A stretch of DNA of 64,000 nt from a bacterium (GCA_037200965.1 JBBCGK010000001.1:512001-576000); one strand, 5' to 3'; counted from the stretch's first letter, positions 12,956 through 56,773 are shown. Numbers and translations are program-made. The notes: generated by a model not told the origin, from the sequence alone.

Positions 12956-13026
12956 GTGCGCTCAGTATAGCCTGCTGCATAGGTAAAAAGAAAAGCCGCC
13001 TCCAACGGCTCCCCGTTGTGGCGGTC

Positions 13027-13413: not shown

Positions 13414-13449
13414 TCGCGCCTCCTTTCAAGTCTGCGCAGCACGAACTAC

Positions 13450-14537: not shown

Positions 14538-15450
14538 TCAATACCTTGGCACCACTAAGCCAAGTCGCATGCCATACACCACCAACCCCCGTATGCCCCG
14601 CATCCGCCGCGAAGCGGCGGATCTCTTCCGCCAAGGCTGGAGCGCGCGCAAGATCGGGCGGCATCTCGGGTACCATCACACCGCCGTCATGAAATGGGTG
14701 CGAAGGGCCGAACGCATCGGATACCACCCGATACCGACGCGCTCGTCGCGTCCGAAGCGCCATCCCCGGCAGCTCTCAGACGAACTCCGCTGGAAGATCT
14801 TCCATACCCGGCTCAAGTCGAAGCGAAGCGCGGAAGTCATTCAGCGCATACTGGAGGAGGAAGGGGTGGTGATTTCACTCTCCACCATCAAGCGAACGCT
14901 TGACCGCATGGGCCTCCTCAAGAAGAGGAGCCCGTACAAGCGATACCACCCACAGGTCGACCGCCCCCTGCCGGAGAAACCCGGTTCCCTCGTCCAGATC
15001 GACACCATTCACACCATGCTCGATTTGAAGAAGCGGATGTATACCTTCACCCTCATCGACGTGCATTCCCGCACCGCGTACGCGAAGACCTATGCGCGCA
15101 TGGATGCCGCGACCGCCGTGCGCTTCGTCGAGGAGGCGCAGCGGAGAGCGTCCTTCCGCTTCGAAATGCTCCAGAGCGACCATGGTCCCGAGTTCGGGGC
15201 GTGGTTCGTCGAGCGCATCCGGAGGAAGCACCGGTATTCCCGCATCGGGAAACCCAACGACAATGCGCATATCGAGCGATTCAACCGCACGCTTCAGGAG
15301 GAGTGCCTCGACCATGCGCGCAGAAGTCCGGAAGCGTTCAATGCGGCTCTGAAGAAATACATCCCCTGGTACAACCGGGAGCGGCACCATTTCGGCCTGA
15401 ATCTCCTGACCCCGGCACAAGTACTCAAGGAGGTGGTGCCAAGGTGTTGA
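14533..15450 (+). CDS. IS481-family transposase (HTH + rve integrase core)
   Basis: DHGPEF...KPNDNAHIERFNRTLQEE. The track start at 14533 precedes the IR; a real start at a downstream M (e.g. 14569) is likely. Confidence 0.8.
   Translation: MVQYLGTTKPSRMPYTTNPRMPRIRREAADLFRQGWSARKIGRHLGYHHTAVMKWVRRAERIGYHPIPTRSSRPKRHPRQLSDELRWKIFHTRLKSKRSAEVIQRILEEEGVVISLSTIKRTLDRMGLLKKRSPYKRYHPQVDRPLPEKPGSLVQIDTIHTMLDLKKRMYTFTLIDVHSRTAYAKTYARMDAATAVRFVEEAQRRASFRFEMLQSDHGPEFGAWFVERIRRKHRYSRIGKPNDNAHIERFNRTLQEECLDHARRSPEAFNAALKKYIPWYNRERHHFGLNLLTPAQVLKEVVPRC
14538..15450 (+). mobile_element. IS481-family insertion sequence (copy 2, different from copy 1)
   Basis: 18-bp terminal IRs TCAATACCTTGGCACCAC (14538-14555) and rc GTGGTGCCAAGGTGTTGA (15433-15450). 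Transposase stop TGA lies inside the right IR. No TSD; left end abuts the IS30 3' end. Confidence 0.6.
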
Positions 15451-39599: not shown

Positions 39600-41276
39600 A
39601 TGGCCGGACACTTCGATACCGGGGCGGAAGACGCGAAGCTCGCGGAGATACGCGAGCGCGAGGAGGAAGACCTTGCCCAGATACTCTCGGGGAAATACGG
39701 TCTCCGGTATGCCGACCTCTCGGCGCTCCCGATAGACAACGACGCGCTGCGGCTCATCCCGGAAGCCGACGCACGGGGCGCCGAAACGGCAGCCTTCCAG
39801 AAAGCCGGAAGGAAACTTTCGGTCGCGGTCAGGAACCCCCAGAATCCGGCGCTTGCGGGAGTGCTCGAGGAACTCGGAAAGCGCGGGTTTATCGTGGAAA
39901 GGTTTCTGGTCTCTACGAAAAGCCTCGAAAAGGCGCTTTCGCGCTATGCCGAACTCTCGCTTGCGGTCGCGAGCTCCGCAGGCATTTTTGATATCGGAGG
40001 CGACGCGCTCAAAACGCTTTCGGCCGAACTTACGACACTCGGGGCCCTGAAATTCTTCCTCGCGACCGCACTCCTTGAAAAGCGCTCGAGCAGGGTTTCG
40101 AAACTTCTTGAAGGAATGCTTGCCGGGGCATTCGCACTTAAGGCTTCGGATATCCACGTCGAGCCCGAAGACGGAAAGACCAGGCTCAGGCTCCGGCTCG
40201 ATGGCGTCCTCACCGATACGCTCGAATTCGATCCCGAGACGTACCGCTCGCTCGCGTCGCGCGTCAAGCTTCTTGCGGGTCTTAAGTTGAACGTCGACAA
40301 CCGCGCGCAGGACGGGCGCTTTAGCGTCACGATGCAGGGTTCCGAGATCGAGATCCGCGTTTCGCTCATTCCCGGCAACTACGGCGAGTCAATCGTGATG
40401 CGCATTCTCGATCCGGCCTCGATCCAGGCGTCGTCGTTCGACACGCTCGGCATCCATCCGAAGCTTCTCGCGCGCCTTGAGACGGAGATCACGCGCCCGA
40501 ACGGCATGCTCCTTACGACCGGACCGACAGGCTCCGGAAAGACGACGACGCTCTATTCGTGCCTCCGGAAGCTCCATACGCCGGACGTGAAGATCGTCAC
40601 GATCGAGGACCCGATCGAATACCATCTCGAGGGCATCGTGCAGACCCAGACCGAAGGAGATAAGTACACGTTCGCTTCGGGGCTCCGCTCCATTCTCCGC
40701 CAGGACCCGGACATCATCATGGTCGGCGAAATCCGCGACGCGGAAGTCGCGGAAGTCGCCATCCAGGCCGCGCTCACGGGCCACTTCGTCTTCTCCACGC
40801 TCCACACCAACAATGCCGCGGGCACGTTCCCGCGTCTCGTGGATCTTGGCATTGATCCGAAGACGTTCGCCTCGGCTATCACCGTCGCGATGGCGCAGCG
40901 CCTCGTGCGGAAACTCGACCCGCAGCAGAGAAAACAGGCGCCGATCGAAGGCGAACAAAAGAGACTCGTCGAGAAGATACTCTCGACCGTTGAGGACAAG
41001 TCGCTCCTTCCCGCTTCGACAGACACCGCGTGGGTGCCCGATCCCAAGGGACCGGACGAGACCGGCTATCACGGGCGCCTCGGCCTCTACGAAGCGATAT
41101 TCATGGACACGAAGATGGGCGAATTCGTGCGCACCAACCCGAGCGAAAGTGAAATCACCAGGGAGGCCGCGCACCAGGGATATCTCACCATGGCGCAGGA
41201 CGGGATATTGAAAGCCATCGCCGGAGAGACATCGCTTGAAGAGGTGTTCCGCGTCGTTGATCTGCCGAGGGATTAG
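39600..41276 (+). CDS. pilB: GspE/PilB-family type II/IV secretion ATPase
   Basis: N1/N2 domains and Walker A GPTGSGKTTTLYS, Asp box, His box. Confidence 0.85.
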   Translation: MAGHFDTGAEDAKLAEIREREEEDLAQILSGKYGLRYADLSALPIDNDALRLIPEADARGAETAAFQKAGRKLSVAVRNPQNPALAGVLEELGKRGFIVERFLVSTKSLEKALSRYAELSLAVASSAGIFDIGGDALKTLSAELTTLGALKFFLATALLEKRSSRVSKLLEGMLAGAFALKASDIHVEPEDGKTRLRLRLDGVLTDTLEFDPETYRSLASRVKLLAGLKLNVDNRAQDGRFSVTMQGSEIEIRVSLIPGNYGESIVMRILDPASIQASSFDTLGIHPKLLARLETEITRPNGMLLTTGPTGSGKTTTLYSCLRKLHTPDVKIVTIEDPIEYHLEGIVQTQTEGDKYTFASGLRSILRQDPDIIMVGEIRDAEVAEVAIQAALTGHFVFSTLHTNNAAGTFPRLVDLGIDPKTFASAITVAMAQRLVRKLDPQQRKQAPIEGEQKRLVEKILSTVEDKSLLPASTDTAWVPDPKGPDETGYHGRLGLYEAIFMDTKMGEFVRTNPSESEITREAAHQGYLTMAQDGILKAIAGETSLEEVFRVVDLPRD

Positions 41277-41818
41277 GTTAAGGAATCTTGCTTTGCCTGC
41301 GTAGGCGCGGCTCCATAAATTTTGTTGAAAAACTCGTACTTCTTCCGCATATACTCTCTCCGCTTCATTCCCTCAGCCCCGAGCTTCAGTTGCTCGTATT
41401 CTTTAGCGAGTGCCGGTGATTGGAGAAGAACTTCGTGCGTCTTTATTTGTTCGGCTAAAAGCGGGCTGAGGGTGCCGTTTAAATAAAGCTCGACGGGAAA
41501 GCCGTTCCGCTTGAATTTCCACTCTGCCCAGTTTCTCTGCGGTTTGAAGCTGGTTGGCTCGCCGTATAATCTTTTCAGTGATTCCAGTTCGTCGTCAAAC
41601 GATCCCGAGCTCACGATACTAATATCAATGTCGTTCTCTCCCGCGATACCAAGCCGACTTGAGCCTATATAATGAAGAGACGACCGGGATAATATTTTCC
41701 CGACTTCTTCGCAAATCTTGAAACCCTCCTCCCGTGCGCGCGGGTCAAAGAGCTTAATACGGACGATCTCCTCGTCGGATAAGGTCCCGAGATATTTTTC
41801 TTGGGCGGGAGTAATCAT
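41273..41818 (-). CDS. GrpB-like nucleotidyltransferase-fold protein
   Basis: GSSRLGIAGENDIDISIV NTase motif; GC ~47%. Confidence 0.5.
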   Translation of the reverse strand: MITPAQEKYLGTLSDEEIVRIKLFDPRAREEGFKICEEVGKILSRSSLHYIGSSRLGIAGENDIDISIVSSGSFDDELESLKRLYGEPTSFKPQRNWAEWKFKRNGFPVELYLNGTLSPLLAEQIKTHEVLLQSPALAKEYEQLKLGAEGMKRREYMRKKYEFFNKIYGAAPTQAKQDSLT

Positions 41819-41877
41819 TCTGCTGAGTATAGAATACAAAAATCCCGCGCATAATCCTCCAGGCACGCATTCTATAA

Positions 41878-42054: not shown

Positions 42055-43047
42055 ATGTCAAGTACCCCCGATCTTAAGGCCGCTTCTCTTCCGCCGCTTG
42101 ATCAGGCGCTTGACGCGGCGCTCCGGCCTTCCGCCTGGGACGACTACGTGGGTCAGGGGCACGTAAAAGCGAACGTGAAAGTGGTTTTGGAAGCCGCGAA
42201 GAAGCGCGGCGACATGCCCGAGCACATTCTTTTCTACGGACCGCCGGGAGTCGGCAAGACGACGCTCGCGCACCTCGTCGCAAACACGCTCGGAGCGCCC
42301 CTGAAGTCGACGAGCGGCGTCGCGATCGAGCGCGCGGCCGATCTCGCAGCCATTCTCACGAATCTTGAGCCCGGCACGGTGCTCTTTATCGACGAGATAC
42401 ATCAGTTGGGAAACAAAATAGAAGAACTCCTCTATCCCGCGCTCGAATCCGGGACTCTCGATATCGTGCTCGGGAAAGGACCTTCGGCGCGCACGGTCGA
42501 GCTCGCGCTTCCCCGCTTTACGCTTGTGGGCGCGACGACGCGCGTCGCGCAGATCTCCTCGCCGCTGCGCTCCCGCTTTGGCGGCGGCGTATACCAGCTC
42601 GATTTTTATAACGACGACGACCTGCGCGCGATCATCAAGCGTTCCGCGAAGGTGCTCGGGCTCGACGCCCCCGCGGAAGTCGTCGAGCGGGTCGCGGCGA
42701 GAAGCCGCGCAACCCCGAGAATCGCGAACGCGCTTCTGAAACGCGTCCGGGACTTCTCCGAAGTCGAGGAAAAGAAACTCTCGGCCGAGCTCTGCGACGA
42801 AGCCTGCGAGCTGTTCGGCATCGATACCCTCGGACTTACCAAAGACGACCGCCGCTATCTTGAGACACTTGAAAAGGGCTTCAAAGGAGGGCCCGCGGGC
42901 ATTCGCGCCCTGGCTTCCGCGCTTCATGAGGATCCTGATACGGTCGAGAACGTGTATGAACCTTATCTTCTTCGCCTTGGTATGATCGAGCGGTCGCCGC
43001 GCGGGCGAATGCTTACACAAAAAGGCCGAACATATCTGAAAGGTTAG
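42055..43047 (+). CDS. ruvB: Holliday junction DNA helicase RuvB
   Basis: HILFYGPPGVGKTTLAHLVANTLG, sensor motifs, winged-helix C-terminus. Confidence 0.9.
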   Translation: MSSTPDLKAASLPPLDQALDAALRPSAWDDYVGQGHVKANVKVVLEAAKKRGDMPEHILFYGPPGVGKTTLAHLVANTLGAPLKSTSGVAIERAADLAAILTNLEPGTVLFIDEIHQLGNKIEELLYPALESGTLDIVLGKGPSARTVELALPRFTLVGATTRVAQISSPLRSRFGGGVYQLDFYNDDDLRAIIKRSAKVLGLDAPAEVVERVAARSRATPRIANALLKRVRDFSEVEEKKLSAELCDEACELFGIDTLGLTKDDRRYLETLEKGFKGGPAGIRALASALHEDPDTVENVYEPYLLRLGMIERSPRGRMLTQKGRTYLKG

Positions 43048-43142
43048 TACTGCGCGTGCTGAATTAGCCCCGGGCTCATTACCAAACGACAAGGACAGGG
43101 CCGGGGACATCGGTAGTTCGAAACAGTTCAGGCTTGGCCGAT

Positions 43143-44570
43143 TTACATAAGCAGGAAGTAGTCGAGTGGAAGCTTCACTACATTCTCTTCCCTTGAGAGC
43201 AACAGGCTTGTAGTGCAGACAACGACTCCGAAATCGGTCTTGAAGTTTACCATCGTCGCTTTCACTTGTTCGTAGTTCTTTCGTCCGAGACCGACCTCAA
43301 AGGCAAGCTGCTTCTTGTCGGCGATCTGTACCAGGAAGTCGGCGCTACTCTTGGACGGGTCGTGCGTTAATCCTCCCGTCCTGGTTGCCACGAACTCCCG
43401 ATAGAAGTGGAGGCCTGCTATGTCTTCAAGATACTTGCCTTTTCTCGCAAGATACGTGCCTTCAATGCCGCTGACACTGAGAAGCGCCGAGCGAATTGCC
43501 GGACTCATGAACAGATACTTGGCTGGCTTACGCGCTTGCGCCGTTTTAGAGCCTTGGGCGGGTACTTTGATTATAAGTTCGGCTCGTTCAAGCACGTCCA
43601 GTACGGCCATGACCGTGTTATAGCTTAGCTGGACAACATTTTTTACATTGTTGACGCTTACAATGTCGCTATCGGCCATGATAAAGAGGAGGCGCTTGAT
43701 CGCGCTGAGCGTCGGCGCATCAAACTGCCCGAGGTCCTTTATATCTTTATCAATGATTCGATCCAGGAGAATGTTGATGTTGTCGTAAGCATTCGGGGTT
43801 ATCGCGCGGAGAGTAAAGGGCAGGGTGCCGTTCAAAAGGTATTCGTCGATTTCGGCTCGGTCAAAACGGGCCCACTGCGCCGCGACGTTTTGTTCAAGTT
43901 TCTTAAGCCGGTCGAAAGCGTCTCCGGCATTAGAAGCCCCATATAGCGCATCCTTAATCTTCTCCTTGAGTCCCGCCTGAGGGAAGATATTATGCTTGAT
44001 CATCTGGTACTCACCGAAACTAAGGGGATAAAGCTTCTCGAACTGCGCCCGACGAGCGACGTCCGGGTTTGACTGGAGCGACACCGCTGATGAACCGGTG
44101 CAGAACAGGAATACATTTCTCGCTCGGTCATGGAGAGACTTCAGGACCGCTGCCCAGTTTTTATCCTGCTGCACTTCATCAATGAAGAGCAGCACCGGAG
44201 TATCGAGGCTCTCGAACGGTTTCCCGAGAATGGATTCATAAGCGTCTAAAGCATCGTTCAGGGTCATGCCCCGGGTGACGAGATCGTCGACCGACATATA
44301 AAGGAAGCTGGTCGGGGCTTTGGAGACACGCCTCGTAGAGAGAAAGACCTGAGCCATTGCAGTAGTCTTTCCAACACCGCGCAGCCCAGGGACAATTATC
44401 CAGCGTACCGTTCGGGCACCTTCAAGGAAATCATTCACATACTTTTTTATACGGATAACGATATGTCTTTCCGGAAAGGTGAACGTGGCCGTTTGAAACA
44501 CGTACGGGCGGAGGCGGTCCTCGCTACGGTTTAGCTGATTTTGAATATACTCAAGGGCTTCGGTATTCAT
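43143..44570 (-). CDS. AAA+ ATPase with DUF4143-like C-terminal domain
   Basis: Walker A PGLRGVGKTT, Walker B LLFIDEVQ; GC ~47%. Confidence 0.65.
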   Translation of the reverse strand: MNTEALEYIQNQLNRSEDRLRPYVFQTATFTFPERHIVIRIKKYVNDFLEGARTVRWIIVPGLRGVGKTTAMAQVFLSTRRVSKAPTSFLYMSVDDLVTRGMTLNDALDAYESILGKPFESLDTPVLLFIDEVQQDKNWAAVLKSLHDRARNVFLFCTGSSAVSLQSNPDVARRAQFEKLYPLSFGEYQMIKHNIFPQAGLKEKIKDALYGASNAGDAFDRLKKLEQNVAAQWARFDRAEIDEYLLNGTLPFTLRAITPNAYDNINILLDRIIDKDIKDLGQFDAPTLSAIKRLLFIMADSDIVSVNNVKNVVQLSYNTVMAVLDVLERAELIIKVPAQGSKTAQARKPAKYLFMSPAIRSALLSVSGIEGTYLARKGKYLEDIAGLHFYREFVATRTGGLTHDPSKSSADFLVQIADKKQLAFEVGLGRKNYEQVKATMVNFKTDFGVVVCTTSLLLSREENVVKLPLDYFLLM

Positions 44571-44686
44571 AGGACTTATTCACTAGGATAATGAAGTGTT
44601 GTCGACTACTTATTCAGTCTATTGGATAAGTAACTTTTGTCAACAGGGAAATCATAGAATATGGGCTCTTTTGTCGAATTTACTTT

Positions 44687-44704
44687 TTATCCACATAATC
44701 CACG
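44687..44704 (+). promoter_or_regulatory. two tandem DnaA-box-like sites (TTATCCACA perfect consensus + TAATCCACG)
   Basis: Read directly in a 380-bp AT-rich divergent intergenic region between the DUF4143 ATPase and yebC. Confidence 0.4.
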
Positions 44705-44949
44705 GATTGGGGATAAATATAACTGAGAAAAGGTTCTTTGCTAAGTTGTGCTTTTTGGAACAACTTTTTAAGGACATCTGTCGAGGGGTCTTCAACTCTT
44801 TCGACGAACGGCGATACGACAAAAGAAAGGGGGGCGTCCACTCCTGGGACACCCCTTTCGTCGATCATTATACATGCGGCGGATGAGGCTTCAAAGAAAC
44901 CTCATCAGTCACATGTATATATCTCTTTTTTTATACTAGTATTCATACC

Positions 44950-46284: not shown

Positions 46285-48372
46285 ATGACCAAGCGAGCGC
46301 GCGTCCGCCCGAAGCGGCACCACTTCATCCTTACGCTCGCGCTTTTCGCGGCGGGCCTCGTGCTTATCCTCGTCGGCGTCGGCGCGGTATGGATAGCCCT
46401 CGCGCCCACCCCCGACATCGATTCCTTCGCAACCCGGGAGATAAGCCAGTCGACGAAGATATACGACCGTACCGGCACCATCCTCCTCTATGACCTCAAT
46501 ACCGATACCCGGCGCGATATCGTAAGCCTCGCGAGCACGTCGCCCTATGTCCAGAAGGCGACGGTCGCGATCGAGGACGCGGATTTCTATCAGCACTCGG
46601 GCATCCGCATCACCTCGATCTTCCGCGCCATCCTCGCCGACCTCACGCCGGGCGGCCTCACCCAGGGCGGCTCGACCATCACGCAGCAGGTGGTGAAGAA
46701 ATCCATCCTCACGGACGAGAAGAGCATCACCCGCAAGGTGCACGAATGGATACTCGCCATAAAGCTCGAACAGAAATACTCCAAGGATCAGATTCTCGAA
46801 ACGTATCTCAACGAAGTCCCGTACGGCGGCAGCCTCTACGGCATCGAATCGGCAAGCGAGGCGTATTTCGGCACGAATGCGGGAGGGCTCTCGCTCGCCG
46901 AGTCCGCGTATCTCGCCGCAATCCCCCAGGCTCCCACGTACTATTCCCCGTACGGAAGCCACCGCGCCTCGCTTGATGCCCGCCAGGCCCTGGTGCTCGA
47001 GCGCATGAAGGAACTCGGGTTCATAACCGACGAGGAATACGCGGCGGCGAAGGCGGAGGTGGTGACGTTCAACCCGCAGCAGCCTTCCTCGATCATCGCC
47101 CCGCACTTCGTCTTCTATATACGGGAATACCTCGAGAACAAGTACGGCCCGCAGGAACTCGCTTCAGGAGGGCTTAAAGTAGTGACGACGCTCGACGCGG
47201 ATCTTGAGCACGACGCGGAGTCTCTCGTAAACAAGTATGCGCTTGAGAACGTGAAGAAATTCAACGCGAGCAACGCTTCCCTCGTCGCGATCGACCCCAA
47301 GACCGGGCAGATACTCGCGATGGTGGGCTCGAGGGACTATTTCGACAAGGACATCCAGGGGAACTTCAACGCCGCGACCTCACACCGCCAGCCAGGCTCG
47401 ACCTTCAAGCCCTTCGTCTATGCGGCGGCGCTCAGGAAAGGCTTTACGCCCGACACCGCGATATTTGACGTGCCGACCCAGTTCTCCACTTCCTGCAGCC
47501 CCTCGGATATTTATAACGACACCCCTCCCTGCTACGCTCCGAGCGACTATGACGACAAGTTCCGCGGCCCCATGACCTTCACGACGGCGCTCGCGCAGTC
47601 GATCAACGTGCCGGCGGTGAAGACGCTCTATCTCGCGGGAATACAGAACGTGCTCGATGTCGCAAGCGCGATGGGCATCACCTCGCTTGGCGACCGCAAG
47701 CAATACGGACTCTCGCTTGCGCTTGGCGCGGGCGAAGTTTCGCTCCTTGAGCTCACGAGTGCGTACAGCGCCTTCGCCGCCGACGGGGTACGGAATCCTC
47801 CGGTCGGGATACTCTCGGTCACCGACAGCGCCGGAAACACGCTTGAGGAATACACGCCCGCCCCCGAGCAGGCGCTCGATCCGAACGTGGCCCGGGAGAT
47901 GTCCGCCATGCTCTCGAACAACCCGGCCCGGTTCCCCGAATACCCGCCCCAGAATCCGCTCAATATCCCCGGATATGATGTGGCGGTCAAAACGGGAACG
48001 ACGAACGACTATAAGGACGCATGGACGGTCGGCTATACGCCGTCGATCGCGATCGGCGTGTGGGCCGGGAACAACGACAACAGCCAGATGGTGAAGGAGA
48101 TCGCGGGCTATATCGTCGCCCCGATGTGGAACGCGGTGATGGTCAAGGCGCTCGCCAAGTATCCGAAGGAATACTTTGGAGAGCCGATACCACCGCCCGA
48201 GATTTCGCCGATACTTCAGGGCATCTGGAATCCCGAAGGGCAGGTACACAGCGAGCTCTACTGGCTTGATAAAGATAATCCGCAGGGAGGGGCGCCGGGG
48301 AATCCGGGGAACGATCCGCAGTATCGGTACTGGGAGTATGCGGTGCAGTCGTGGTTTGGGAGGTCTATTTGA
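46285..48372 (+). CDS. mrcA: class A penicillin-binding protein 1A (transglycosylase + transpeptidase)
   Basis: GT51 motifs EDADFYQHSGI...GGSTITQQ; transpeptidase SGSTFKP, SxN, KTG(T). Confidence 0.9.
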   Translation: MTKRARVRPKRHHFILTLALFAAGLVLILVGVGAVWIALAPTPDIDSFATREISQSTKIYDRTGTILLYDLNTDTRRDIVSLASTSPYVQKATVAIEDADFYQHSGIRITSIFRAILADLTPGGLTQGGSTITQQVVKKSILTDEKSITRKVHEWILAIKLEQKYSKDQILETYLNEVPYGGSLYGIESASEAYFGTNAGGLSLAESAYLAAIPQAPTYYSPYGSHRASLDARQALVLERMKELGFITDEEYAAAKAEVVTFNPQQPSSIIAPHFVFYIREYLENKYGPQELASGGLKVVTTLDADLEHDAESLVNKYALENVKKFNASNASLVAIDPKTGQILAMVGSRDYFDKDIQGNFNAATSHRQPGSTFKPFVYAAALRKGFTPDTAIFDVPTQFSTSCSPSDIYNDTPPCYAPSDYDDKFRGPMTFTTALAQSINVPAVKTLYLAGIQNVLDVASAMGITSLGDRKQYGLSLALGAGEVSLLELTSAYSAFAADGVRNPPVGILSVTDSAGNTLEEYTPAPEQALDPNVAREMSAMLSNNPARFPEYPPQNPLNIPGYDVAVKTGTTNDYKDAWTVGYTPSIAIGVWAGNNDNSQMVKEIAGYIVAPMWNAVMVKALAKYPKEYFGEPIPPPEISPILQGIWNPEGQVHSELYWLDKDNPQGGAPGNPGNDPQYRYWEYAVQSWFGRSI

Positions 48373-48384
48373 GAAGGAATAACC

Positions 48385-48465
48385 TTGCGCGAGTTGGTCG
48401 TCTAAGACGATTTTGGAACATGCCCTGGCACAGCGAGGTTCGAACCCCGACAACGGAGCACGACA
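48385..48465 (+). repeat. intergenic repeat family, copy A (degenerate, partially duplicated)
   Basis: ccttgcgcgagttggtcg...ccctggcacagcgaggttcgaacc resembles copies B/C. Confidence 0.45.
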
Positions 48466-48554
48466 TTGACAGTAGTAACATAGTTTAGTACAAGGATTAT
48501 AGGGTCTAGATTCTTCCGGCAGTTCCAATCTTCTGTCGCGCTCAGGAGGGCATC

Positions 48555-48806
48555 ATGTATTACTCTGAATCTTTGAGCCGCCTCGGCTTCAAGAAAGTTA
48601 CCGGGCCTGTGCCCTGTCTGCACCGGACGCATCGCGGCGTTTATACCACCGGAGAATATTTTGGCACGGTGTGGACCTGCGCCAGCGACGAAGACTATGC
48701 TCTGTGGATCAAGAAAGGAAATGGTGAGATTGGTCAGTATGGCTTTACGAAGGTCTCCAACCTTTCCGTGGATATAACAGGGCTTGAACCGGTTCCCTTG
48801 GAGTAA
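48555..48806 (+). CDS. hypothetical small protein (83 aa)
   Basis: Low-GC ORF ending inside a strong terminator hairpin. Confidence 0.35.
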   Translation: MYYSESLSRLGFKKVTGPVPCLHRTHRGVYTTGEYFGTVWTCASDEDYALWIKKGNGEIGQYGFTKVSNLSVDITGLEPVPLE

Positions 48807-48822
48807 GGGAGCCGGTTTTTTG
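48789..48822 (+). terminator. rho-independent terminator
   Basis: ccggttccctt-ggagt-aagggagccgg followed by tttttt. Confidence 0.6.
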
Positions 48823-48949
48823 AACGTCTTCCACCAACCTGATTTGAATATTCTTCGTGAAAATGTCAGCTAGCCGTCCGGCACGAAGTTGGAGCCTTAG
48901 CTCAAGAAAAAACGTATATTTATTTTAACCCATAGCGACTCATGAAAGT

Positions 48950-48987
48950 TATGGGCCGACCGTCTCGAGCGCGCAAGGGAAACTGTC
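48950..48987 (-). repeat. intergenic repeat family, partial copy D (inverted orientation)
   Basis: gggccgaccgtctcgagcgcgcaaggg resembles ..tggccgcctcgag / caagcgcg of copies B/C. Confidence 0.35.
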
Positions 48988-50343
48988 TTACTCAACCCTT
49001 ATTAGCGGCGTTGCCCCGAAAGTAACCTTCTGTGGTATTCCGTCCTTTATATCGCTAAATGTAGCTATTTCCCCTCTCGAACTAAATCCGCTCCCTCCTT
49101 TTAATAGGAACTTACTTTCATCTATCGACTGAAGAATCGTTTTATTGCTACCAAATAGTGGAGAGCTTGTATTCATATCAAAAGAAACTAGCGTATCTTT
49201 TATCTTAACTACTACCTTGTCTTCTCCAGAATTCCGATAAATACCTTCGTATTTTATACCATCAACTTTATTTTCCGACGTGTAATCAGAATTATTTTCA
49301 GTAAGACTGTATATTGCTTGAAAAATGCTCTGGGCATATGCCCATACCGGAGCTTTTGAGGTATTTGCGAGCACAACAACACCAAGTTCATTCCCGTAAT
49401 CAATGGCAACCTTTGATACAAAACCTTTGAAGCCTCCGCCATGGCCATATACTTTTTTAGAACTAACGTCATACATTTCAATCCCTAAACAGTATTTATC
49501 CGTACTCCTGGTATAGAAATCAGGCTCTGTAACCATACTTTGTTTAGATTCATTCTTTAAAAGAATCTCTGGTGCCTTAAACGGGAAGGTGGCTATATAT
49601 CTTGCAAGATCAATAGCATTTGAAATAAAGCCAGTCGCTGGCGCATAGGCATTAGCAGAGTAATGCCCGTACTTTTCCCTTTCCTGACCTGGTATTTCTC
49701 GTCCAAGGCCATTAGCAAGACCTCCTATATCTTTTTTATAATCAGTGAAGGTTGAGACCATGTCTAGCCTATCTAAGATATTTGCTTGAATATATTCCTC
49801 ATAAGACAGGCCGCTTACAGCAGCAATAAGTTCGCCTAAAACCGCGAAGCCGTAATTGGAGTATTTGAACTGAGAAGATGGTTTAAAAACCAAAGCTTCG
49901 TCTAAAAGAAGCTGAAGCGTCGTGGGGAATTCACCTGTAAACCAATGGGGTGTAGTACCTTCGCTCCAAATACCAGACGTGTGAGACAGTAATTCGTTAA
50001 TTGTAATATCTTCTAATTTGCCGTTTTCATTCTCTCCTTTGAACCATGGGAGATACTTTGAGACTGAATCTGTGAGTTTGATCTTTTCTTCTTCTACGAG
50101 TTGAAAAACTGCAACCGATGTAAACATCTTTGAAACAGAACCAATGTGATATAGGGTGTTTTCACTAACTTCAATCTTTTTTTCTAGGTCAGCATATCCA
50201 AAACCCTTCTTATACAAAACTTCTCCTTTATAAATAATTGCAATTGAAACACCAAGCACTTTATCGTATTGCAGTCTTAAAGGAAGCCATACCTCCAATA
50301 GATGCGCGACTTCTTTGATTGCTGATTTAATGTCGATCTCCAC
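48988..50343 (-). CDS. serine hydrolase, beta-lactamase/PBP-like (class C/AmpC-type fold)
   Basis: SxxK motif GSVSKMFTSVAV; YxN and KTG-like regions; GC ~38%. Start set at GVG (GTG, ~50343); the track ORF runs to 50406 through repeat copy B. Confidence 0.7.
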   Translation of the reverse strand: MEIDIKSAIKEVAHLLEVWLPLRLQYDKVLGVSIAIIYKGEVLYKKGFGYADLEKKIEVSENTLYHIGSVSKMFTSVAVFQLVEEEKIKLTDSVSKYLPWFKGENENGKLEDITINELLSHTSGIWSEGTTPHWFTGEFPTTLQLLLDEALVFKPSSQFKYSNYGFAVLGELIAAVSGLSYEEYIQANILDRLDMVSTFTDYKKDIGGLANGLGREIPGQEREKYGHYSANAYAPATGFISNAIDLARYIATFPFKAPEILLKNESKQSMVTEPDFYTRSTDKYCLGIEMYDVSSKKVYGHGGGFKGFVSKVAIDYGNELGVVVLANTSKAPVWAYAQSIFQAIYSLTENNSDYTSENKVDGIKYEGIYRNSGEDKVVVKIKDTLVSFDMNTSSPLFGSNKTILQSIDESKFLLKGGSGFSSRGEIATFSDIKDGIPQKVTFGATPLIRVE

Positions 50344-50395
50344 AACTATAATTGTAGTACAAAAAATGAAGTACCACGAGCAGTACGATTGTTCT

Positions 50396-50455
50396 GCGCC
50401 TCTCAAGCGCGAAACCCTGGCACGAGTTGGCTGGCCGCCTCGAGTTCGAACCGTA
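50396..50455 (+). repeat. intergenic repeat family, copy B
   Basis: caagcgcgaaaccctggcacgagttggctggccgcctcgagttcgaacc. Confidence 0.55.
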
Positions 50456-50528
50456 TAGAGACAAGTCCGGGTTAGTACGTTTGATGAGTTTCGAGAATAT
50501 AAAACGATGCGTCTCGTGCGGCGAGGAC

Positions 50529-50903
50529 TTAGTTACCAAATACTACTTCTACATTATTTCCATCTGGATCTAGTACAAATGCTCCGTAGTAGTTTTCGTG
50601 ATATTCAGACCTAATACCTGGTGTTCCGTTATCTCTTCCTCCCGCATCAAGAGCTAATTTATGGAACTCATCCACCTCCTGTCTTGATTGAGCTTTCCAA
50701 GCGATGTGTGCTGGACCACTTATGGGTGCTTCACCGGCAAAGAACGTATTTGTCTTACCATCCTTTCCGAAGCCAATAACACGAACATGATCTTCATATG
50801 TTTGATCAAAGTTCAGTGAATATCCAAGGGGAGAAAGCGCAGCAGAATAGAATCGAGCTGTAGCTGCAATGTCACTTACTTTAAAAGTTATATGGTCGAG
50901 CAT
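50529..50903 (-). CDS. VOC-family protein (glyoxalase/bleomycin-resistance fold)
   Basis: MLDHITFKVSDIAATARFY...HIAW...GAFVLDPDGNNVEVV. Confidence 0.75.
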   Translation of the reverse strand: MLDHITFKVSDIAATARFYSAALSPLGYSLNFDQTYEDHVRVIGFGKDGKTNTFFAGEAPISGPAHIAWKAQSRQEVDEFHKLALDAGGRDNGTPGIRSEYHENYYGAFVLDPDGNNVEVVFGN

Positions 50904-50915
50904 ATATGAATTATA

Positions 50916-51566
50916 TCAGCGCGGTTCTTCTTCGGTTGCTGTAGGCTCATCTTGTACAGACGCCTGTTTAGCTGCAGGAAGTGCTCGGGCTCGACGGAAT
51001 TTATAAAATCCCTCCAGTGCTGAAATGACTGCATCGATTACTTCGTTTGCATCCTCTTTGGTTACTGGCGCCGCTAAATCATCTGGGTGCATAACGTCAT
51101 TACGGCCGAGTCGAGCAACTGTGCTATCTGCAAATTGATCTGCATCGATCGCATCTCCATTCTTTAGCAACTCCAATCTCTTTTTTAGGCTCTTTCCCGC
51201 ATCTGAAGGTGACTTTAAGAATGCATTTACAAGTGCATCAAGCATAATTCCCGCTAAGGCAACTGAACTTCTGTAATTGCCATTATTGAACTCGACATAC
51301 ATTTCACCGCAGATCTCGCGGTAATTCTCTGGGAGCCAAGATGGTACTTGATGAGTTGAAATTACTGGATAAACGAATTTTACTCTGTTTTTAAATCCTG
51401 GCTCATGTTCGACGACAAAAGCATGCCCTCCCGGACATTCAACTACGCAGACGGTTTGTCCTTCACGGAACTGGTGTTGCCAAACTTCTGCAAAATAGGA
51501 GTGCAGCCCACACCTAGGACAATTGCCACTCCATCTATTTCCGTCTGTCCATGTCATTTGAATCAT
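50916..51566 (-). CDS. hypothetical protein with N-terminal zinc ribbon and DUF4145-like C-terminus
   Basis: CPRCG...C..C then helical C-terminal region with RNDVMHPD motif. Confidence 0.4.
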   Translation of the reverse strand: MIQMTWTDGNRWSGNCPRCGLHSYFAEVWQHQFREGQTVCVVECPGGHAFVVEHEPGFKNRVKFVYPVISTHQVPSWLPENYREICGEMYVEFNNGNYRSSVALAGIMLDALVNAFLKSPSDAGKSLKKRLELLKNGDAIDADQFADSTVARLGRNDVMHPDDLAAPVTKEDANEVIDAVISALEGFYKFRRARALPAAKQASVQDEPTATEEEPR

Positions 51567-51604
51567 ATTTTCATTATATCGCTTCTTGCGATTTTGCTAA
51601 GCGA

Positions 51605-51660
51605 CGCCTCCCAAGCGCGAAACCCTAGCACGAGTTGGGTGGCCGTCTCAGACTCGAATA
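51605..51660 (+). repeat. intergenic repeat family, copy C
   Basis: ccaagcgcgaaaccctagcacgagttgggtggccgtctcagactcgaata, ~88% identical to copy B. Confidence 0.55.
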
Positions 51661-51931
51661 CTAAGCTTGTTATCGAATCCCCTTCACCGCCACCCCCGCC
51701 CCCCGGAGCGCATCCGTTATGGCCGCCTCTCGCAGATGCATTTCGGACTTAATCACAGGGGATACTTTAAGCGACACGGTCTCGTCCTCATAAGACACCT
51801 GGCTCGCCTTTATCGTAAGGCCAAGGACGCTGCTTATGGTCTCCGCGCACACCCTCCGCCTCTCGGACTGCCGGAGGCCCGGTACCGGGTGCTTGAGCAA
51901 TATGTCCGAGAGGGATTTCATGGAGAGTCAG

Positions 51932-53032
51932 CTACTGATTCATCGGCATCACAAGATACAGGAACGACGCATCGCCGACACCCTTTATAACGAGCGGCCT
52001 TCCGACTCCCCCGGCAGAAAGCGTGACACTCTCCGCGCCTGAAAGCGCCACCGCAGCCTGAAGATAACGATGGTTGAAGGAAAGCTCGATATTCTCTCCT
52101 GTAAGACTCCCAGAAATGGTCTCGGAAGATTCTCCGACATCCGCATTCCTGGCCTGGAGCGAAATCTGCTTCTTCTCCTTATCAAACGCCATACGCACCT
52201 TCTGGAACGAGTCGGAGAAGATCGTGGTGCGCTTGAGCGCGGCATCAAGATCCCTCCGGAGCACGGTCGCTTCCGCCGAAAACGTCTTCGGGATGATCTG
52301 GCGATAGTCGGGATAGTTTCCGCTCACAAGCCTCGTGGTCACGAGACTCCCGCCCCACCCGATGGCGCACTGGTGCTCGTCGATCGAGAGCGTCACCGCC
52401 TCGTCCGGAAGCGTCTGTACGATATCCAGAGCATTCTTTGCGGGGATAAGGAGCGAGAATGAGGGGACGGAGCCTGGAAGCGAGGTGTGCTTCTCGGCAA
52501 GACGGAAGGAGTCCGTAGCGGCGGTAACGAGCGACCCTCCCTCGCTTGCGACAAGCACGCTCGCGAGCTCCGGGCGTATGGTCGAAGTGGAGGCGCAGGA
52601 AACGACCGAGTTGAGCGCTGTGCGAAGGAGGGTGCCCGGAATCTGGAACGTGCTCTTTGGGGACTCGGGAAACGGTATCGTCGGGAAATCCTCGTACGGC
52701 ACGGTCTTAAGGACGCCGCGGGACGTGCCGGAAGAAAGCACGACGGTATCCCCGGTCCGCTCGAGCGTCACGGACCCGTTCCCCTGAAGCGCACTCGCGA
52801 CTTGCTGGAGGAGGTTCGCGGGGAGCGCGACCACGCCCGGAGTCTTTATCTCCCCGTCCGCCTTGAGATCGACGCCGACTTCGAGATTTGTGGCACGGAA
52901 TTTGATGCCGTCATCCCCCGCAACAATCAGGATCGAAGAGAGCGCGGGAAGCGTCGCGGAGCCCCGCTGTGCGAATCGCGCCGCCGTATGCACTACTTCC
53001 GCGAGTCCTTTCTTTTCTAAAATAATAAGCAT
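51932..53032 (-). CDS. dnaN: DNA polymerase III beta sliding clamp
   Basis: Three-domain clamp, ~366 aa, immediately downstream of dnaA. Confidence 0.9.
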   Translation of the reverse strand: MLIILEKKGLAEVVHTAARFAQRGSATLPALSSILIVAGDDGIKFRATNLEVGVDLKADGEIKTPGVVALPANLLQQVASALQGNGSVTLERTGDTVVLSSGTSRGVLKTVPYEDFPTIPFPESPKSTFQIPGTLLRTALNSVVSCASTSTIRPELASVLVASEGGSLVTAATDSFRLAEKHTSLPGSVPSFSLLIPAKNALDIVQTLPDEAVTLSIDEHQCAIGWGGSLVTTRLVSGNYPDYRQIIPKTFSAEATVLRRDLDAALKRTTIFSDSFQKVRMAFDKEKKQISLQARNADVGESSETISGSLTGENIELSFNHRYLQAAVALSGAESVTLSAGGVGRPLVIKGVGDASFLYLVMPMNQ

Positions 53033-53247: not shown

Positions 53248-54597
53248 TTATACCAACATGGTACGGATGTCCTGGATCTCCTTCGCGAGGTCGCTGTTGT
53301 CGATGATTTCACGCTTCACCTTCTCGCAGGAGTGGATGACGGTGGTATGGTCGCGCCCCCCGAGCTTCGAGCCGATGGTCGGATACGAGATGCTGAAGTC
53401 CTCGCGAAGGAGGTACATGATCACCTGCCGCGGCCGCACCACTTCCCTCCTGCGGGTCTTCTCATAGATGCTTTCCTCGCCGATGCCGTAGAATTCGGCG
53501 ACCTTCGAGACGATATGCTTCACCGAGACCGTCTTTGACGGTCTCGCGAAGGACCGGAGCGACTGCCGTATCTCGGCGATGTCCGGCGGCACCCCTTTCA
53601 CCTGCGTGTGGCAGACGACGCTGTTCACGACTCCTTCGAGCTCCCTGATAGACCCCGGGACCGAGAGCGCGATATACTCCGCGACCTCGTCCGCGAGCGT
53701 AACCCCGTGGGACGCGGCCTTGCGCCGGATGATCGCAACCCTCGACTCGGTGTCGGGTTCCCCGATATCGACCGCCATGCCGCTTGAGAAGCGGCTCCTG
53801 AGCCGCTCCGCGATGTCGGGGATAGCCGCGGGAGCGCGGTCCGAGGAGAAGATGATCTGCTTGTTGTTGTCGTGGAGGGTATTGAAGAGGTGGAAGAGTT
53901 CCTCCTGATATTTTTCCTTCTTCGCAAGGAACTGTACGTCGTCCATGATGAGGAGATCGTACTGGCGGTACTTGTCCTTGAAACGGTTCGGATTGCCCGC
54001 CTGGAGCGAGTCGCTGTATTCGACGCAGAACTTCTCCGAAGTGAGATAGAAGACCTTGCGGGTCGGATAGAGCTTCTTGAATTGGTTGCCGATCGACTGG
54101 ATGAGGTGGGTCTTCCCCCGCCCGGTGTCGCCATAGATGAAGAGCGGGTTGTACATGATCCCCGGGCGCTGTATCACCGCCTGCGCGGCGCTATAGGCAA
54201 GCTCGTTGAAGGAGCCGATGACGAACGAATCGAAGGTGTAGCGGGGGTTCAGGTTGTCGCTTTTGTTGATATAGAAGTCGTCAAGCGGCATCGAGACGGT
54301 CTGGCGGTCGGTTTTCTGCTCCCTGGCGGGCTTCCGGCGCTCGTCTTTCACGATCGCGTACTCGATATTGCGGAACTCGTAGGAGACGCCCCGGATGATC
54401 TTGAGGAGAAGGGCGTTGAAATGCTTCAGATACCAGTCGCGGAAGAAGGGGCTCGGGACGCCTACCTGCACGATCCCGTCCTCTATCTTCACGATATGGC
54501 TCGCGCCGAACCAGGTCTTGAAATTAGCCGGGGAAACGGAGAGCTCTACCTGCGTCAGCACGTGTTCCCAGAGCTCTCTCGGATCGGTACGGTTCAT
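53248..54597 (-). CDS. dnaA: chromosomal replication initiator DnaA
   Basis: AAA+ motif IYGDTGRGKTHL...; C-terminal DNA-binding domain. Confidence 0.9.
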   Translation of the reverse strand: MNRTDPRELWEHVLTQVELSVSPANFKTWFGASHIVKIEDGIVQVGVPSPFFRDWYLKHFNALLLKIIRGVSYEFRNIEYAIVKDERRKPAREQKTDRQTVSMPLDDFYINKSDNLNPRYTFDSFVIGSFNELAYSAAQAVIQRPGIMYNPLFIYGDTGRGKTHLIQSIGNQFKKLYPTRKVFYLTSEKFCVEYSDSLQAGNPNRFKDKYRQYDLLIMDDVQFLAKKEKYQEELFHLFNTLHDNNKQIIFSSDRAPAAIPDIAERLRSRFSSGMAVDIGEPDTESRVAIIRRKAASHGVTLADEVAEYIALSVPGSIRELEGVVNSVVCHTQVKGVPPDIAEIRQSLRSFARPSKTVSVKHIVSKVAEFYGIGEESIYEKTRRREVVRPRQVIMYLLREDFSISYPTIGSKLGGRDHTTVIHSCEKVKREIIDNSDLAKEIQDIRTMLV

Positions 54598-54874: not shown

Positions 54875-55186
54875 ATGTTTCCGCGCGAAAAGCGCGTTTC
54901 CCGCGAGGATTTCCCGAAGCTTCTTGCTTCGCGCACGAGGCTTTTCTCCCCCCACTTCTCCGCTACCCTCTCCGAAACCTCCGCAGGGGTCGCGGCCGTG
55001 GTGTCGAAGAAGGTTGAGAAGACGTCGGTCGGAAGACACAGGCTAAAACGCCGGATTCTGGGCGTTTTAGCGTCGTATAACACGCTTCCGGCGCTCGGGA
55101 TCATCGTATTTGCGAAAGCCGGAGCCGCAGCCCTTAGCTCAAAAGAGCTTCGGGAAGAGCTCCGGGAGCTTTTCAGAAAAGTGTAG
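54875..55186 (+). CDS. rnpA: ribonuclease P protein component
   Basis: VSKKVEKTSVGRHRLKRRI motif; follows rpmH. Confidence 0.8.
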   Translation: MFPREKRVSREDFPKLLASRTRLFSPHFSATLSETSAGVAAVVSKKVEKTSVGRHRLKRRILGVLASYNTLPALGIIVFAKAGAAALSSKELREELRELFRKV

Positions 55187-55226
55187 CCCAAATAAAGCCG
55201 CAGACCTTATCTGCTACCATTACCCT

Positions 55227-55652
55227 ATGGCAACAATAAATCCCTGGATTAACTTCAACGGCAATGCCGAAGAAGCCTTTATGTTTTACAAATCAGTATT
55301 TGGCGGTGAGTTTACAAAGATTATCCGTTTGAAAGATCTTGCGAGTTCCGAGTTTCCCGTAGCGGACGCGGATGCGGAGAAAATCATGCTCATCGCCCTG
55401 CCGATTGGCAAGAACAGCGTATTGATGGCAAATGACGTACCCTCATTTATGGGTAGGGTGAGTGAAAATGAAAACCGAAGTAAAATCTCGGTCAGTACAG
55501 AGAGCAAGGAGGAAGCGGAGGCTATATTTGAAGGCCTCTCGGCAGGAGGGCAAGTCGAAGCGCCGCTCGGTGAGAGTGCGTGGGGAACCTATTTTGGCAT
55601 GTTCAGGGACAAATATGGCATCGAGTGGATAGTGGAGTTTCGATTTGAATAA
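55227..55652 (+). CDS. VOC-family protein (PhnB/glyoxalase-like)
   Basis: MATINPWINFNGNAEEAFMFYKSVFGGEF...GMFRDKYGIEWIV; lower GC. Confidence 0.65.
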   Translation: MATINPWINFNGNAEEAFMFYKSVFGGEFTKIIRLKDLASSEFPVADADAEKIMLIALPIGKNSVLMANDVPSFMGRVSENENRSKISVSTESKEEAEAIFEGLSAGGQVEAPLGESAWGTYFGMFRDKYGIEWIVEFRFE

Positions 55653-55697
55653 GTTTTTAATCAAAAGGCGCACAATCTTAACCCCGCTTAGACTCTC

Positions 55698-56630
55698 ATG
55701 CTTCCCAAGCTTACAGACGACCAAATTAAAAGTGTTTTTACTAACGTTGGCCTCGGCACTCCGAACACCATCAAAAAACTCAGTGTCGGCTTCTCAAACG
55801 ATGTGTATTCCGTAGACGATAAATACATTTTTAAGGCCATTAGGAACGAAGAAGACACGTCGTATCTAAAGAAGGAAATCCACCTTTGCAATTTGTTTAA
55901 GGAGAGGCTGCCCGCACCAGTAGTCGTGCATTCCGATACCGCTAAAGCCGCCCTTGATAGGGCGTATGTCATATACGAGAAGATTCAAGGAGATAACCTT
56001 TATATGCGGTGGCACGAATATTCCACCGAGGAGCGAAAGGCGATAGTCGAACAGATTTGCTCCTATCTTAAAGTCATTAACACTGAGCCTTTTAAAGATT
56101 TTACTGACGCTTTCAATATTGATACCAAAACTTCATGGCACGAACGGATAGCTACGAAAATACAAGAACATAAACTGAAAGCCCTTTCTGTTAATGCTAT
56201 TTCGTCTGAACAGGCGGAGCGAGTAGATGAGTATGTGAGGACTAGTTTAGTAGCACTCGATGAGTCCGTTATGGCACTGACTTACTTTGATGTTCACTTC
56301 GATAATTTTATCGTTCGAGACAAAAAGATAGTCGGAATGCTCGATTTTGAGAGGACGGATTTTTACTCGATAGATTTCGTATTGGATATCGTGCGACGCA
56401 TGGTCAACGAGCCGACTAAATACGCTTCCGAAGAAGCCGAACCGCTCATCAAGGCAGAGGATTATGCGAGTTTGATGGAACAGTACAAAGAGTATTATCC
56501 TCAACTCTTTGACTTTGAAAATCTTGAAGCGCGCCTCAAGCTATACTCAATAGACCACGACCTAGACCAACTCCATACGTGGCCTGAATCAGCGAGCCTT
56601 AAAGAGAGCTTGGCGAGGAATACTCAGTAG
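55698..56630 (+). CDS. phosphotransferase-enzyme-family (APH/choline-kinase-like) protein
   Basis: Kinase-like catalytic loop VHFDNFIV and DFE motif GMLDFERT; GC ~42%. Confidence 0.6.
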   Translation: MLPKLTDDQIKSVFTNVGLGTPNTIKKLSVGFSNDVYSVDDKYIFKAIRNEEDTSYLKKEIHLCNLFKERLPAPVVVHSDTAKAALDRAYVIYEKIQGDNLYMRWHEYSTEERKAIVEQICSYLKVINTEPFKDFTDAFNIDTKTSWHERIATKIQEHKLKALSVNAISSEQAERVDEYVRTSLVALDESVMALTYFDVHFDNFIVRDKKIVGMLDFERTDFYSIDFVLDIVRRMVNEPTKYASEEAEPLIKAEDYASLMEQYKEYYPQLFDFENLEARLKLYSIDHDLDQLHTWPESASLKESLARNTQ

Positions 56631-56773
56631 GCAAAATGTTCCGTTTCATCAGCCGCATCAAACACCCGTTGGCCCATCTGATTCATATACTCTCGGTTGA
56701 ATAGCAGGGGTGTATTTAGGTGACGCTCTGAGGGAGAACGGAATCGATAAATGAGGTATTATACGAAGCACGC

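Follow-up and report, generated by a model that had tools for sequence, protein, structure and literature searches.

The junction between dnaN and PBP1A was analysed in 64,000 nucleotides of DNA from a Paceibacterota bacterium (GCA_037200965.1 JBBCGK010000001.1:512001-576000; this whole stretch is called the window below). Between orf83m, an 83-amino acid (aa) gene that follows dnaN, and the convergent PBP1A gene lies an inserted islet of 3297 bp, running from the PBP1A stop to the orf83m stop (48373-51669). The islet is best explained as an array of three small horizontally acquired modules at the dnaN-orf83m/PBP1A junction, the first carrying a DUF4145 gene and a VOC gene, the second a beta-lactamase-family serine hydrolase gene and the third an 83-aa open reading frame (ORF). 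All four of its spacers carry a site related to short and long sites that border small variable genes in other species, and these sites share one orientation. That the islet is inserted, modular and equipped with members of this site family is, taken jointly, highly probable. That the sites are places of recombination at cassette boundaries, att-like and integron-like although not those of an integron, is a reading to which we give an even chance. Taken alone, the islet in the window is an ordinary small acquired islet.

The insertion was recognized by comparison with about 80 related, origin-proximal loci. In the nearest of these (L089, L090 and L091, DnaN 86% identical) and in the P0003 contig (81%), the stop codons of orf83m and PBP1A overlap as CTAG; therefore all of the DNA from 48373 to 51669, including the repeat units described below, is extra in the window. 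Colinear blastn alignment to L089 ends at 48359 and restarts at 51725. The guanine-cytosine (GC) content of the islet is 0.44 overall against 0.60 in the flanks and falls to 0.36-0.46 over 48.8-51.4 kb, bearing out the drop described in an earlier reading made from the sequence alone (the original prediction). The gap between dnaN and PBP1A, compared in 76 species, is 33-400 bp in most of them and 0.6-4.7 kb in 22, and the genes at the junction differ in these 22. The contents are unrelated among species and include NUDIX, GFA, SDR, methyltransferase, His-phosphatase, DUF4145 and IS1595 genes; a DUF4145 gene occupies this junction in L081. That the closest relatives have an empty site and other species a differing content supports the proposal that the islet was acquired. 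A duplication of host backbone (attB) as the source of the GC-rich repeat unit was ruled out, as the nearest empty sites have overlapping stops and no such sequence.

Boundary sites in relatives and in the window

The long-form site, GGTTCCAACATCGTCCCAGACTGCCAGCAA, was first met as a repeat in L004 while the insertions of relatives were being checked for flanking repeats, and was then found to be shared by many species (AAAGGTTCCAACATCGTCCCAGACTGCCAGCAA). A profile search returned 34 long copies at E<0.01 in 13 loci, 32 of them in 12 dnaN-anchored loci. The copies are nearly invariant over 30 nt although the DnaN proteins of their hosts are only 55-65% identical. Among the 32 copies in the 12 loci, the strand ratio is 29:3 toward the dnaN strand. 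In arrays of small variable genes the long form is present as a single copy per spacer, irrespective of the orientation of the neighbouring genes (examples are L028:17142-19401, L067:16535-17609, L041:17030-18562, L040:15479-16413, L100:4003-5442 and L004:11716-15310). In L100 it follows two of three consecutive genes at E<0.01 and the third at E=0.014, and one of these three genes is a beta-lactamase-family homologue with the long motif 3' of it. In L025 and L028 the whole array is inverted, and its anchor site with it. The consensus of the 34 copies has no dyad symmetry, its conservation lacks a 3-nt periodicity, and the motif is, as judged from the sequence, not coding. It had no Rfam match and no copy in viral contigs, and a literature search found no report of the motif or of such arrays in Parcubacteria. 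Within the dnaN-PBP1A array of L004 there is also an IS1595-family element (12134-14700), bounded by inverted ends of 24 nt (12134-12157 and 14677-14700), the right one of which is separated by 2 nt from a long-form motif (14703).

The short form adjoins a core gene. The site GGTTCGATTCCTAGTCTGCCAGCAA stands directly after the dnaN stop in L004, L011, L013 and L027 and is partial in L019 and L022; the general form of this anchor is approximately GGTTCGAWNCCTAGTCTGCCAGCAA. Other copies lie beside orf83m or at a distance of 19-40 nt from the start of YebC, in every case at whichever end of an array faces the core gene, and at nine of nine loci with a short site on the YebC side the gap measures 0.9-3.9 kb or holds an array. 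A short-site-like sequence lies in an empty gap between YebC and RuvB in L004 (19173-19250), and anchor-like sites right after dnaN in L019 (11098-11111) and L022 (11101-11119) are followed only by a terminator. These anchor-like sites without a cassette may be unoccupied attachment sites.

Breakpoints in relatives coincide with the sites. The flanks of L011 and L013 are 91.5% identical, yet their cassettes differ, and those of L027 differ too. In the alignments of the three loci, homology is lost precisely where the short site terminates on its 3' side and is regained from the 5' end of the last long site onward.

In the window, read along the dnaN strand, the order is orf83m, site C', the DUF4145 and VOC genes with their terminator, site B', the hydrolase gene, site D', a terminator and the 83-aa ORF, sites A2' (doubtful) and A', and the PBP1A stop. 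Sites C' and B' are the minus-strand 5' parts of two repeat units, C and B, which the original prediction had listed among three or four copies (A to D) of a 55-bp repeat. Units B and C align without gaps over 54 nt at 85% identity (93% over the first 41 nt). With a 5-nt indel the gapped alignment extends over 50386-50456 (B) and 51589-51664 (C), both on the minus strand. The 24-nt core of the two occurs exactly twice in 64 kb, where no occurrence is expected, and the copies are 1208 nt apart with genes between them. Of the copies predicted, B and C are thus solid. Copy A, with 27 of 32 aligned positions identical and a 4-nt gap, falls at about the 99th percentile of the background and is marginal as a relative of B and C, and copy D, described as inverted at about 48940-48975, was not detectable.

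Site C' (51635-51659) is a short-form anchor about 10 nt past the orf83m stop. It ranked first of 4264 windows across the 64 kb as a match to the L027 short site (19/25 identical, shuffle p<2.5e-4). Site B' (50427-50452, GGTTCGAACTCGAGGCGGCCAGCCAA), also of the short form, lies between the VOC terminator and the hydrolase promoter region; it was the best match in the window to the L013 short site and the second best to that of L027 (shuffle p<=2.5e-4). An nhmmer search of the island only with the short form gave E=0.066 for B', and its similarity to the long form had p=0.006.

Sites D' and A' are of the long form. D' (AAGGCTCCAACTTCGTGCCGGACGGCTAGC, 48869-48898, minus strand), 90 nt downstream of the beta-lactamase stop, is identical to the clade consensus at 24 of 30 positions and ranked first of 3196 windows in the 64 kb (island-only nhmmer E=0.026, shuffle p<2e-4). 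Between D' and the 83-aa ORF is a bidirectional terminator-like hairpin, AACCGGTTCCCTT..AAGGGAGCCGGTTTTTT (48787-48822), giving the same layout of motif followed by hairpin as is seen for part of the long-form copies in relatives. A' (GTTCCAAAATCGTCTTAGACGACCAAC, 48393-48419, minus strand) is 20 nt from the PBP1A stop, overlaps the previously claimed copy A and ranked second of the 3196 windows (island-only nhmmer E=0.007, shuffle p<2e-4). A possible degenerate short site, A2' (GGTTCGAACCTCGCTGTGCCAG, 48425-48446, minus strand), is weak, with shuffle p of 0.002-0.03 against three short sites and a non-significant nhmmer E of 2.5.

All four spacers therefore carry a site on the minus strand, in uniform orientation. 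This single orientation and the second, clade-wide 30-nt motif in the A and D spacers had been missed by the original prediction. The 3' extension of B' and C' recurs in part at A', and this links the three copies A, B and C of that account. Units B and C are best explained as local, diverged copies of the short form with an extension of 35-45 nt, and the A and D spacers as probably holding decayed copies of the long form. As the copies in the window match only 70-80% of the consensus, the array here may be a fossil.

Attempts to account for units B and C in other ways gave the following. Neither the rest of the 64 kb nor the 80 related loci nor viral contigs contained the exact unit, and the similarity check proposed for the 55-bp consensus yielded no copy outside this organism. 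Folds of each copy on both strands were no better than those of shuffled sequences (z of -0.7 to +1.1 for the units and for spacers A, B and D, folded as RNA and as DNA; about -2 for the 103-nt C spacer as a whole), and Rfam, at the gathering threshold and at E<=10, gave nothing relevant, so that no conserved secondary structure was recovered. Of the findings that the original prediction had named as refuting it, half were obtained: the exact unit is confined to this place and lacks a conserved fold, but the region clearly gains and loses genes. No terminator, Rfam family or tRNA was found that accounts for the units. A coding peptide was rejected because the 42-aa frame has no real homologues, phmmer giving translated repeats only. 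A sigma-54 or sigma-70 promoter reading of the motifs was rejected by inspection, the geometry not fitting.

The statement that the repeats are not derived from transfer RNA (tRNA) holds in that ARAGORN and Rfam found no tRNA gene, but the minus-strand units begin with the T-loop-like sequence GGTTCGAAC. The 5' half of the short site of relatives matches the T-arm of the tRNA-Arg genes of the window at 15-16 of 16 nt, and the pairing of the T-stem is not maintained in the short sites. At the junction, ARAGORN detected no tRNA either in the window or across the approximately 80 related loci, and Rfam detected none even in a 5'-truncated search.

Genes of the islet, host and other islets

Pfam confirmed the predicted beta-lactamase-like hydrolase, VOC protein and DUF4145-like protein, and the 83-aa ORF has no family. 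In module 1, the DUF4145 gene (50916-51566, minus strand; PF13643, E=1.9e-7) encodes a Cys-rich N-terminus ahead of the domain, and the VOC/glyoxalase-family gene is at 50529-50903 on the same strand (PF00903, E=4e-8). Module 2 is the serine hydrolase gene (48988-50346, minus strand; PF00144, E=3e-62), with a GC content of 0.39. Module 3 is the 83-aa ORF (48555-48806, plus strand).

A promoter-like site, TTAGCA-16-TATAAT (51573-51600, minus strand), is located 6 nt before the ATG of the DUF4145 gene, and its -35 box falls within unit C. The sequence GATATAAT precedes the ATG of both the VOC and the DUF4145 genes by six nt (50901-50917 and 51564-51580), and TACAAT lies seven nt ahead of the GTG of the hydrolase gene. 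The spacing between box and start codon suggests that these three genes may give rise to leaderless transcripts. The 83-aa ORF, unlike the other three genes, has a GGAGG Shine-Dalgarno sequence.

Genes at unrelated loci of other Parcubacteria match the hydrolase gene at 76-79% nucleotide identity, and the gene is low in GC in every host. The homology is confined to 48986-50366, the gene itself with the 20 nt that precede its start codon. Only four DUF4145 homologues were found, at 46-50% identity, and the one whose context was examined (P0243) sits at another locus. No relative of the cassettes, the 83-aa ORF included, was found in viral contigs, where a phage or plasmid carrier was considered; neither the 83-aa ORF, for which Pfam was also negative, nor the other islet genes matched a defence system in PADLOC. 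Gene calls on identical DNA differ between L001, L087 and L095 on the one hand and L002 and L088 on the other, with the VOC gene uncalled and the hydrolase 409 aa rather than 451 aa long; these differences are due to the gene caller and are not sequence variation.

The host is a bacterium of the Paceibacterota, in the candidate phyla radiation (CPR), with a tiny genome. The window is identical to contig JBBCBH010010897.1 of GCA_037975565.1 across all stretches compared, and GCA_015655515.1 differs by 2 mismatches in 13.6 kb; the relatives are labelled Candidatus Paceibacterota, Parcubacteria or Kaiserbacteria. The core genes around the islet are dnaA (53248-54597), dnaN (51932-53032) and orf83m (51670-51921), all on the minus strand, and PBP1A (46285-48372, plus strand), which has the Pfam Transgly and Transpeptidase domains and is convergent with the dnaN operon. 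By tblastn, orf83m is kept at about 35 related loci, at 31-48% identity. The order dnaA-dnaN-(orf83m)-PBP1A-RuvC-YebC is common to about 80 species.

A block resembling a type IV secretion system, with PrgI, a TraC-like protein, a VirB4/TraG-type ATPase and an fn3 protein, adjoins yidC and dnaA at 57.5-64 kb of the window and beyond (L095:5590-12531), and is conserved in a relative (L089:1-7095). An IS30-type transposase gene (HTH_38 and rve; 13480-14523) is present inside a lower-GC stretch at 11-14 kb. Two further low-GC islets are absent from L089. The first (43016-44948), between RuvB and YebC, encodes an AAA_14/DUF4143 ATPase (43143-44570, minus strand) that matches the PADLOC candidate defence family PDC-S01 (E=2e-29), and has no boundary motif. 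The second (55068-56757), between rnpA and yidC, carries an APH-type phosphotransferase gene (55698-56630) and a gene for a Glyoxalase/3-dmu-9_3-mt protein. The window also has an insertion of about 0.55 kb relative to L089 at 41275-41830, with a GC content of about 0.49. No flanking repeats were found at these other islets of the window.

Proposed recombination at the sites and its rivals

Of the roles that the original prediction had considered for the repeats, that of recombination sites of a cassette array is the best supported, not for the 55-bp unit as such but for its minus-strand 5' half, which belongs to the clade-wide site family. In the mechanism that we propose, a short anchor site would stand beside a core gene and a long cassette site would follow each module, on the dnaN strand. 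Modules would be added, lost and exchanged by recombination at these sites, and the gene for the enzyme would lie elsewhere. In function the locus would then resemble an integron, with its attI site and attC array, or a tandem accretion of integrase-less islets at an att site. We infer, on the indirect evidence of the breakpoints in L011, L013 and L027, that the sites are substrates of recombination, and further that a recombinase acts on them in trans.

Several observations weigh against this proposal. A stretch of at least 10 kb to each side of the islet holds no recombinase gene, tyrosine recombinases having been searched for in the Pfam-annotated interval of 41.9-70 kb; none is among the four ORFs of the islet, all of which were assigned or scanned; and neither the window nor the 80 related loci yielded a serine recombinase. 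The sites do not show the dyad symmetry that core sites of tyrosine and serine recombinases usually have. The nearest empty sites (L089-L091) hold no site, so the first insertion cannot have been a simple attB x attP event. Many islets are without the motif, among them three other low-GC islets of the window and those with the beta-lactamase homologues of L096 and L098. The ranking and shuffle tests that place B and C in the family were chosen after the motif had been seen; the similarity of C alone to the long form is not significant (p=0.15), and the island-only short-form nhmmer score of B is weak. The loci sampled were all origin-proximal. Finally, a stable fold occurs just 3' of 10 of the 34 long motifs (z < -2), which makes a role in transcription possible.

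With no enzyme seen, asymmetric sites, empty loci that lack a site and islets that lack the motif, a transcriptional role of the motifs, or block transfer through the flanks, becomes a serious rival. Here the motifs would act in transcription or as RNA (a terminator-linked insulator, an element of the 3' untranslated region or a small RNA) and would mark borders only as spacer signals, travelling along with accessory genes or evolving in the spacers of these, and the modules would move by homologous recombination in the flanking core genes after natural transformation, as minimal mobile elements do. In addition to the folds just mentioned, about 15 of the 34 motifs are followed by a terminator-like hairpin as judged by eye, several begin 0-60 nt past a same-strand stop codon, and unit C supplies the -35 box of the promoter-like site of the DUF4145 gene; the site-less empty loci of the nearest relatives fit block transfer. 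However, the orientation of the motif is constant within arrays while genes face either way, and in L028, L040 and L067 it lies upstream and antisense of minus-strand genes. A purely regulatory role, one of the options originally put forward, therefore fits poorly. The motif keeps no fixed distance to a promoter box or start codon, its near-invariance over 30 nt at the DnaN divergence given above would be unusual for an accessory element of a promoter or terminator, and neither an Rfam match nor a significant fold of the units was obtained. We regard this explanation as unlikely, although it is the strongest of the alternatives.

A second alternative arises from a 26-nt core of B and C, GAAACCCTGGCACGAGTTGGCTGGCC, present at 50411-50436 and 51619-51644. 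The only sequences returned by a metagenome scan with the B/C core were Tn3 resolvase tails on three contigs. An identical copy occurs in L084 (3401-3426), and L083 (6188-6213) and L085 differ from it by 1 nt. On each of the three contigs a resolvase gene ends with this core (...RTTLIETLARVGWP...), and a Tn3-family tnpA gene follows directly. A match to the tail is also present at L086:4001-4027. A BLAST search of plasmids returned 25/27-nt matches to genes for 'recombinase family protein' beside Tn3 transposases on enterobacterial and Aeromonas plasmids (E=0.2). The significance of this identity is borderline. Units B and C might be two copies of a Tn3-family-type scar consisting of the last approximately 25 codons of a resolvase gene (delta-tnpR), duplicated with the insertion of the DUF4145 and VOC genes, their likeness to the clade motif then being partial or coincidental. 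Consistent with such a scar, the differences among A, B, C and tnpR in the L-A-R-V-G codons are all synonymous and in third positions, and the end of unit B is an in-frame stop that coincides with the end of tnpR. By our own estimate an exact 26-mer is expected about 4e-4 times in 1e12 bases, a figure that is not scaled to the size of the collection scanned.

The plasmid E value is nevertheless the same as that of an obvious chance match in the list, and copy C retrieves no resolvase. The window has no other remnant of a resolvase or transposase, tblastn with TnpR and TnpA finding only a 9-14-aa tail, and phmmer with the 42-aa frame gives, as noted above, translated repeats only. The same 5' truncation in both copies requires an extra duplication step, the short site itself accounts, with its 3' end, for 10 of the 26 nt (GGCCAGCCAA, minus strand), and the long motifs of the A and D spacers are left unaccounted for. 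We therefore consider a Tn3 scar improbable.

The idea that the motif is a polar DNA signal unrelated to insertion (a DNA-uptake, replication- or segregation-oriented site) accumulating in non-coding DNA near the origin would suit the 29:3 strand bias co-directional with dnaN at origin-proximal loci, the near-identity across species and the dependence on natural competence that is thought to characterize Patescibacteria, but is very improbable, as copies are restricted to variable arrays, most species and the conserved spacers being without them, 30 nt is far longer than known uptake or polar motifs, the inverted arrays of L025 and L028 follow the polarity of the array rather than that of the chromosome, and L100 has one copy after each of three genes.

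Returning to recombination at cassette boundaries, a wider proposal can be made tentatively, and we think it rather less probable than its opposite: the Paceibacterota would have a previously undescribed cassette system, composed of a T-loop-like anchor (after dnaN, beside orf83m or upstream of YebC) and a near-invariant 30-nt site for each one-gene module, with a recombinase gene located at another place in the genome or carried by a mobile partner. It would be a functional analogue of the integron that does without attC hairpins, and the islet in the window would be a decaying example of it. The genomes of CPR bacteria (Patescibacteria) are tiny, and the routes by which accessory genes enter them are poorly understood. 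If the sites are recombination sites, they point to a cassette-capture system in a major uncultivated lineage that is mechanistically distinct from integrons, and they provide a search key for arrays, cassette pools and, through co-occurrence, the enzyme. Even if the sites are regulatory, a 30-nt element that is near-invariant at about 60% core-protein identity is an unexplained conserved feature worth characterizing.

Comparison with known systems

Several known classes of repeat do not match the units. A miniature inverted-repeat transposable element (MITE), as had been suggested, is not supported, there being no terminal inverted repeats, only two copies in the 64 kb and none in the 80 related loci. 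The original judgement that the repeats are not CRISPR-like was confirmed: the spacing of 1208 nt with genes between is not that of 23-50-nt repeats with 25-70-nt spacers, and the sole Rfam CRISPR match (E=5.5) lies elsewhere and is a chance one. The likeness to Tn3 is confined to the 26 nt of B and C that are identical or nearly so to the ...ETLARVGWP coding tail at the 3' end of tnpR; a resolvase ORF, a res site, a 38-bp inverted repeat and a transposase remnant are all missing here. The reference inverted repeat of L086 is unrelated to the units, and a Tn3 transposon or its remnant fails as a class.

Imperfect direct repeats of a sequence resembling a tRNA 3' end (GGTTCGAWTCC plus about 8 nt) flank successive integrase-less inserts, as in islets of the cis-mobilizable element (CIME) type and others that target tRNA genes. 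Here, however, no tRNA stands at the junction in about 80 species and the T-stem pairing is not kept up. Typical tRNA islands are far larger, whereas the modules here are 0.4-1.5 kb with one or two genes, and the anchor abuts dnaN, orf83m or YebC. A tRNA-targeting island was rejected because the junction has no intact tRNA or transfer-messenger RNA gene and the islet no integrase, the T-arm-like identity to tRNA-Arg being limited to the 15-16 nt described above.

The minimal mobile elements of Neisseria share with this locus a single junction occupied by unrelated genes in each lineage, no mobility genes and an empty state in close relatives. That model needs no boundary sites, whereas here ordered and oriented sites separate the modules. 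The pdif modules of Acinetobacter are likewise small and bounded by sites of about 28 nt, which are used by the host Xer enzymes encoded elsewhere. Each pdif site has a pair of inverted 11-nt arms around a 6-nt spacer, and the orientation alternates from site to site, whereas the sites here are asymmetric and all point one way. With no dyad symmetry in the 34-copy consensus and a uniform orientation, assignment to the pdif/Xer modules fails.

An integron, or a cluster of attC sites lacking integron-integrases (CALIN), was rejected on three grounds. A regular-expression search of both strands of the islet and of the whole 64 kb found 0 pairs of R'' (RYYYAAC) and R' (GTTRRRY) 40-130 nt apart, there is no stable single-strand hairpin in the units or in the A, B and D spacers, and the Pfam-annotated gene lists for 41.9-70 kb of the window contain no intI or other recombinase gene. 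The attC sites of integrons are imperfect palindromes conserved mainly in structure, whereas the sites here are near-invariant in sequence over 30 nt without a palindrome. No IntI-type gene lies beside any of the arrays, and the modules bring their own promoters and terminators. The resemblance to integron arrays is one of architecture: a unique site on the platform side is followed by small modules that each end with a related site, the sites run one way while genes face either way, cassettes turn over quickly, and the same gene appears in different arrays.

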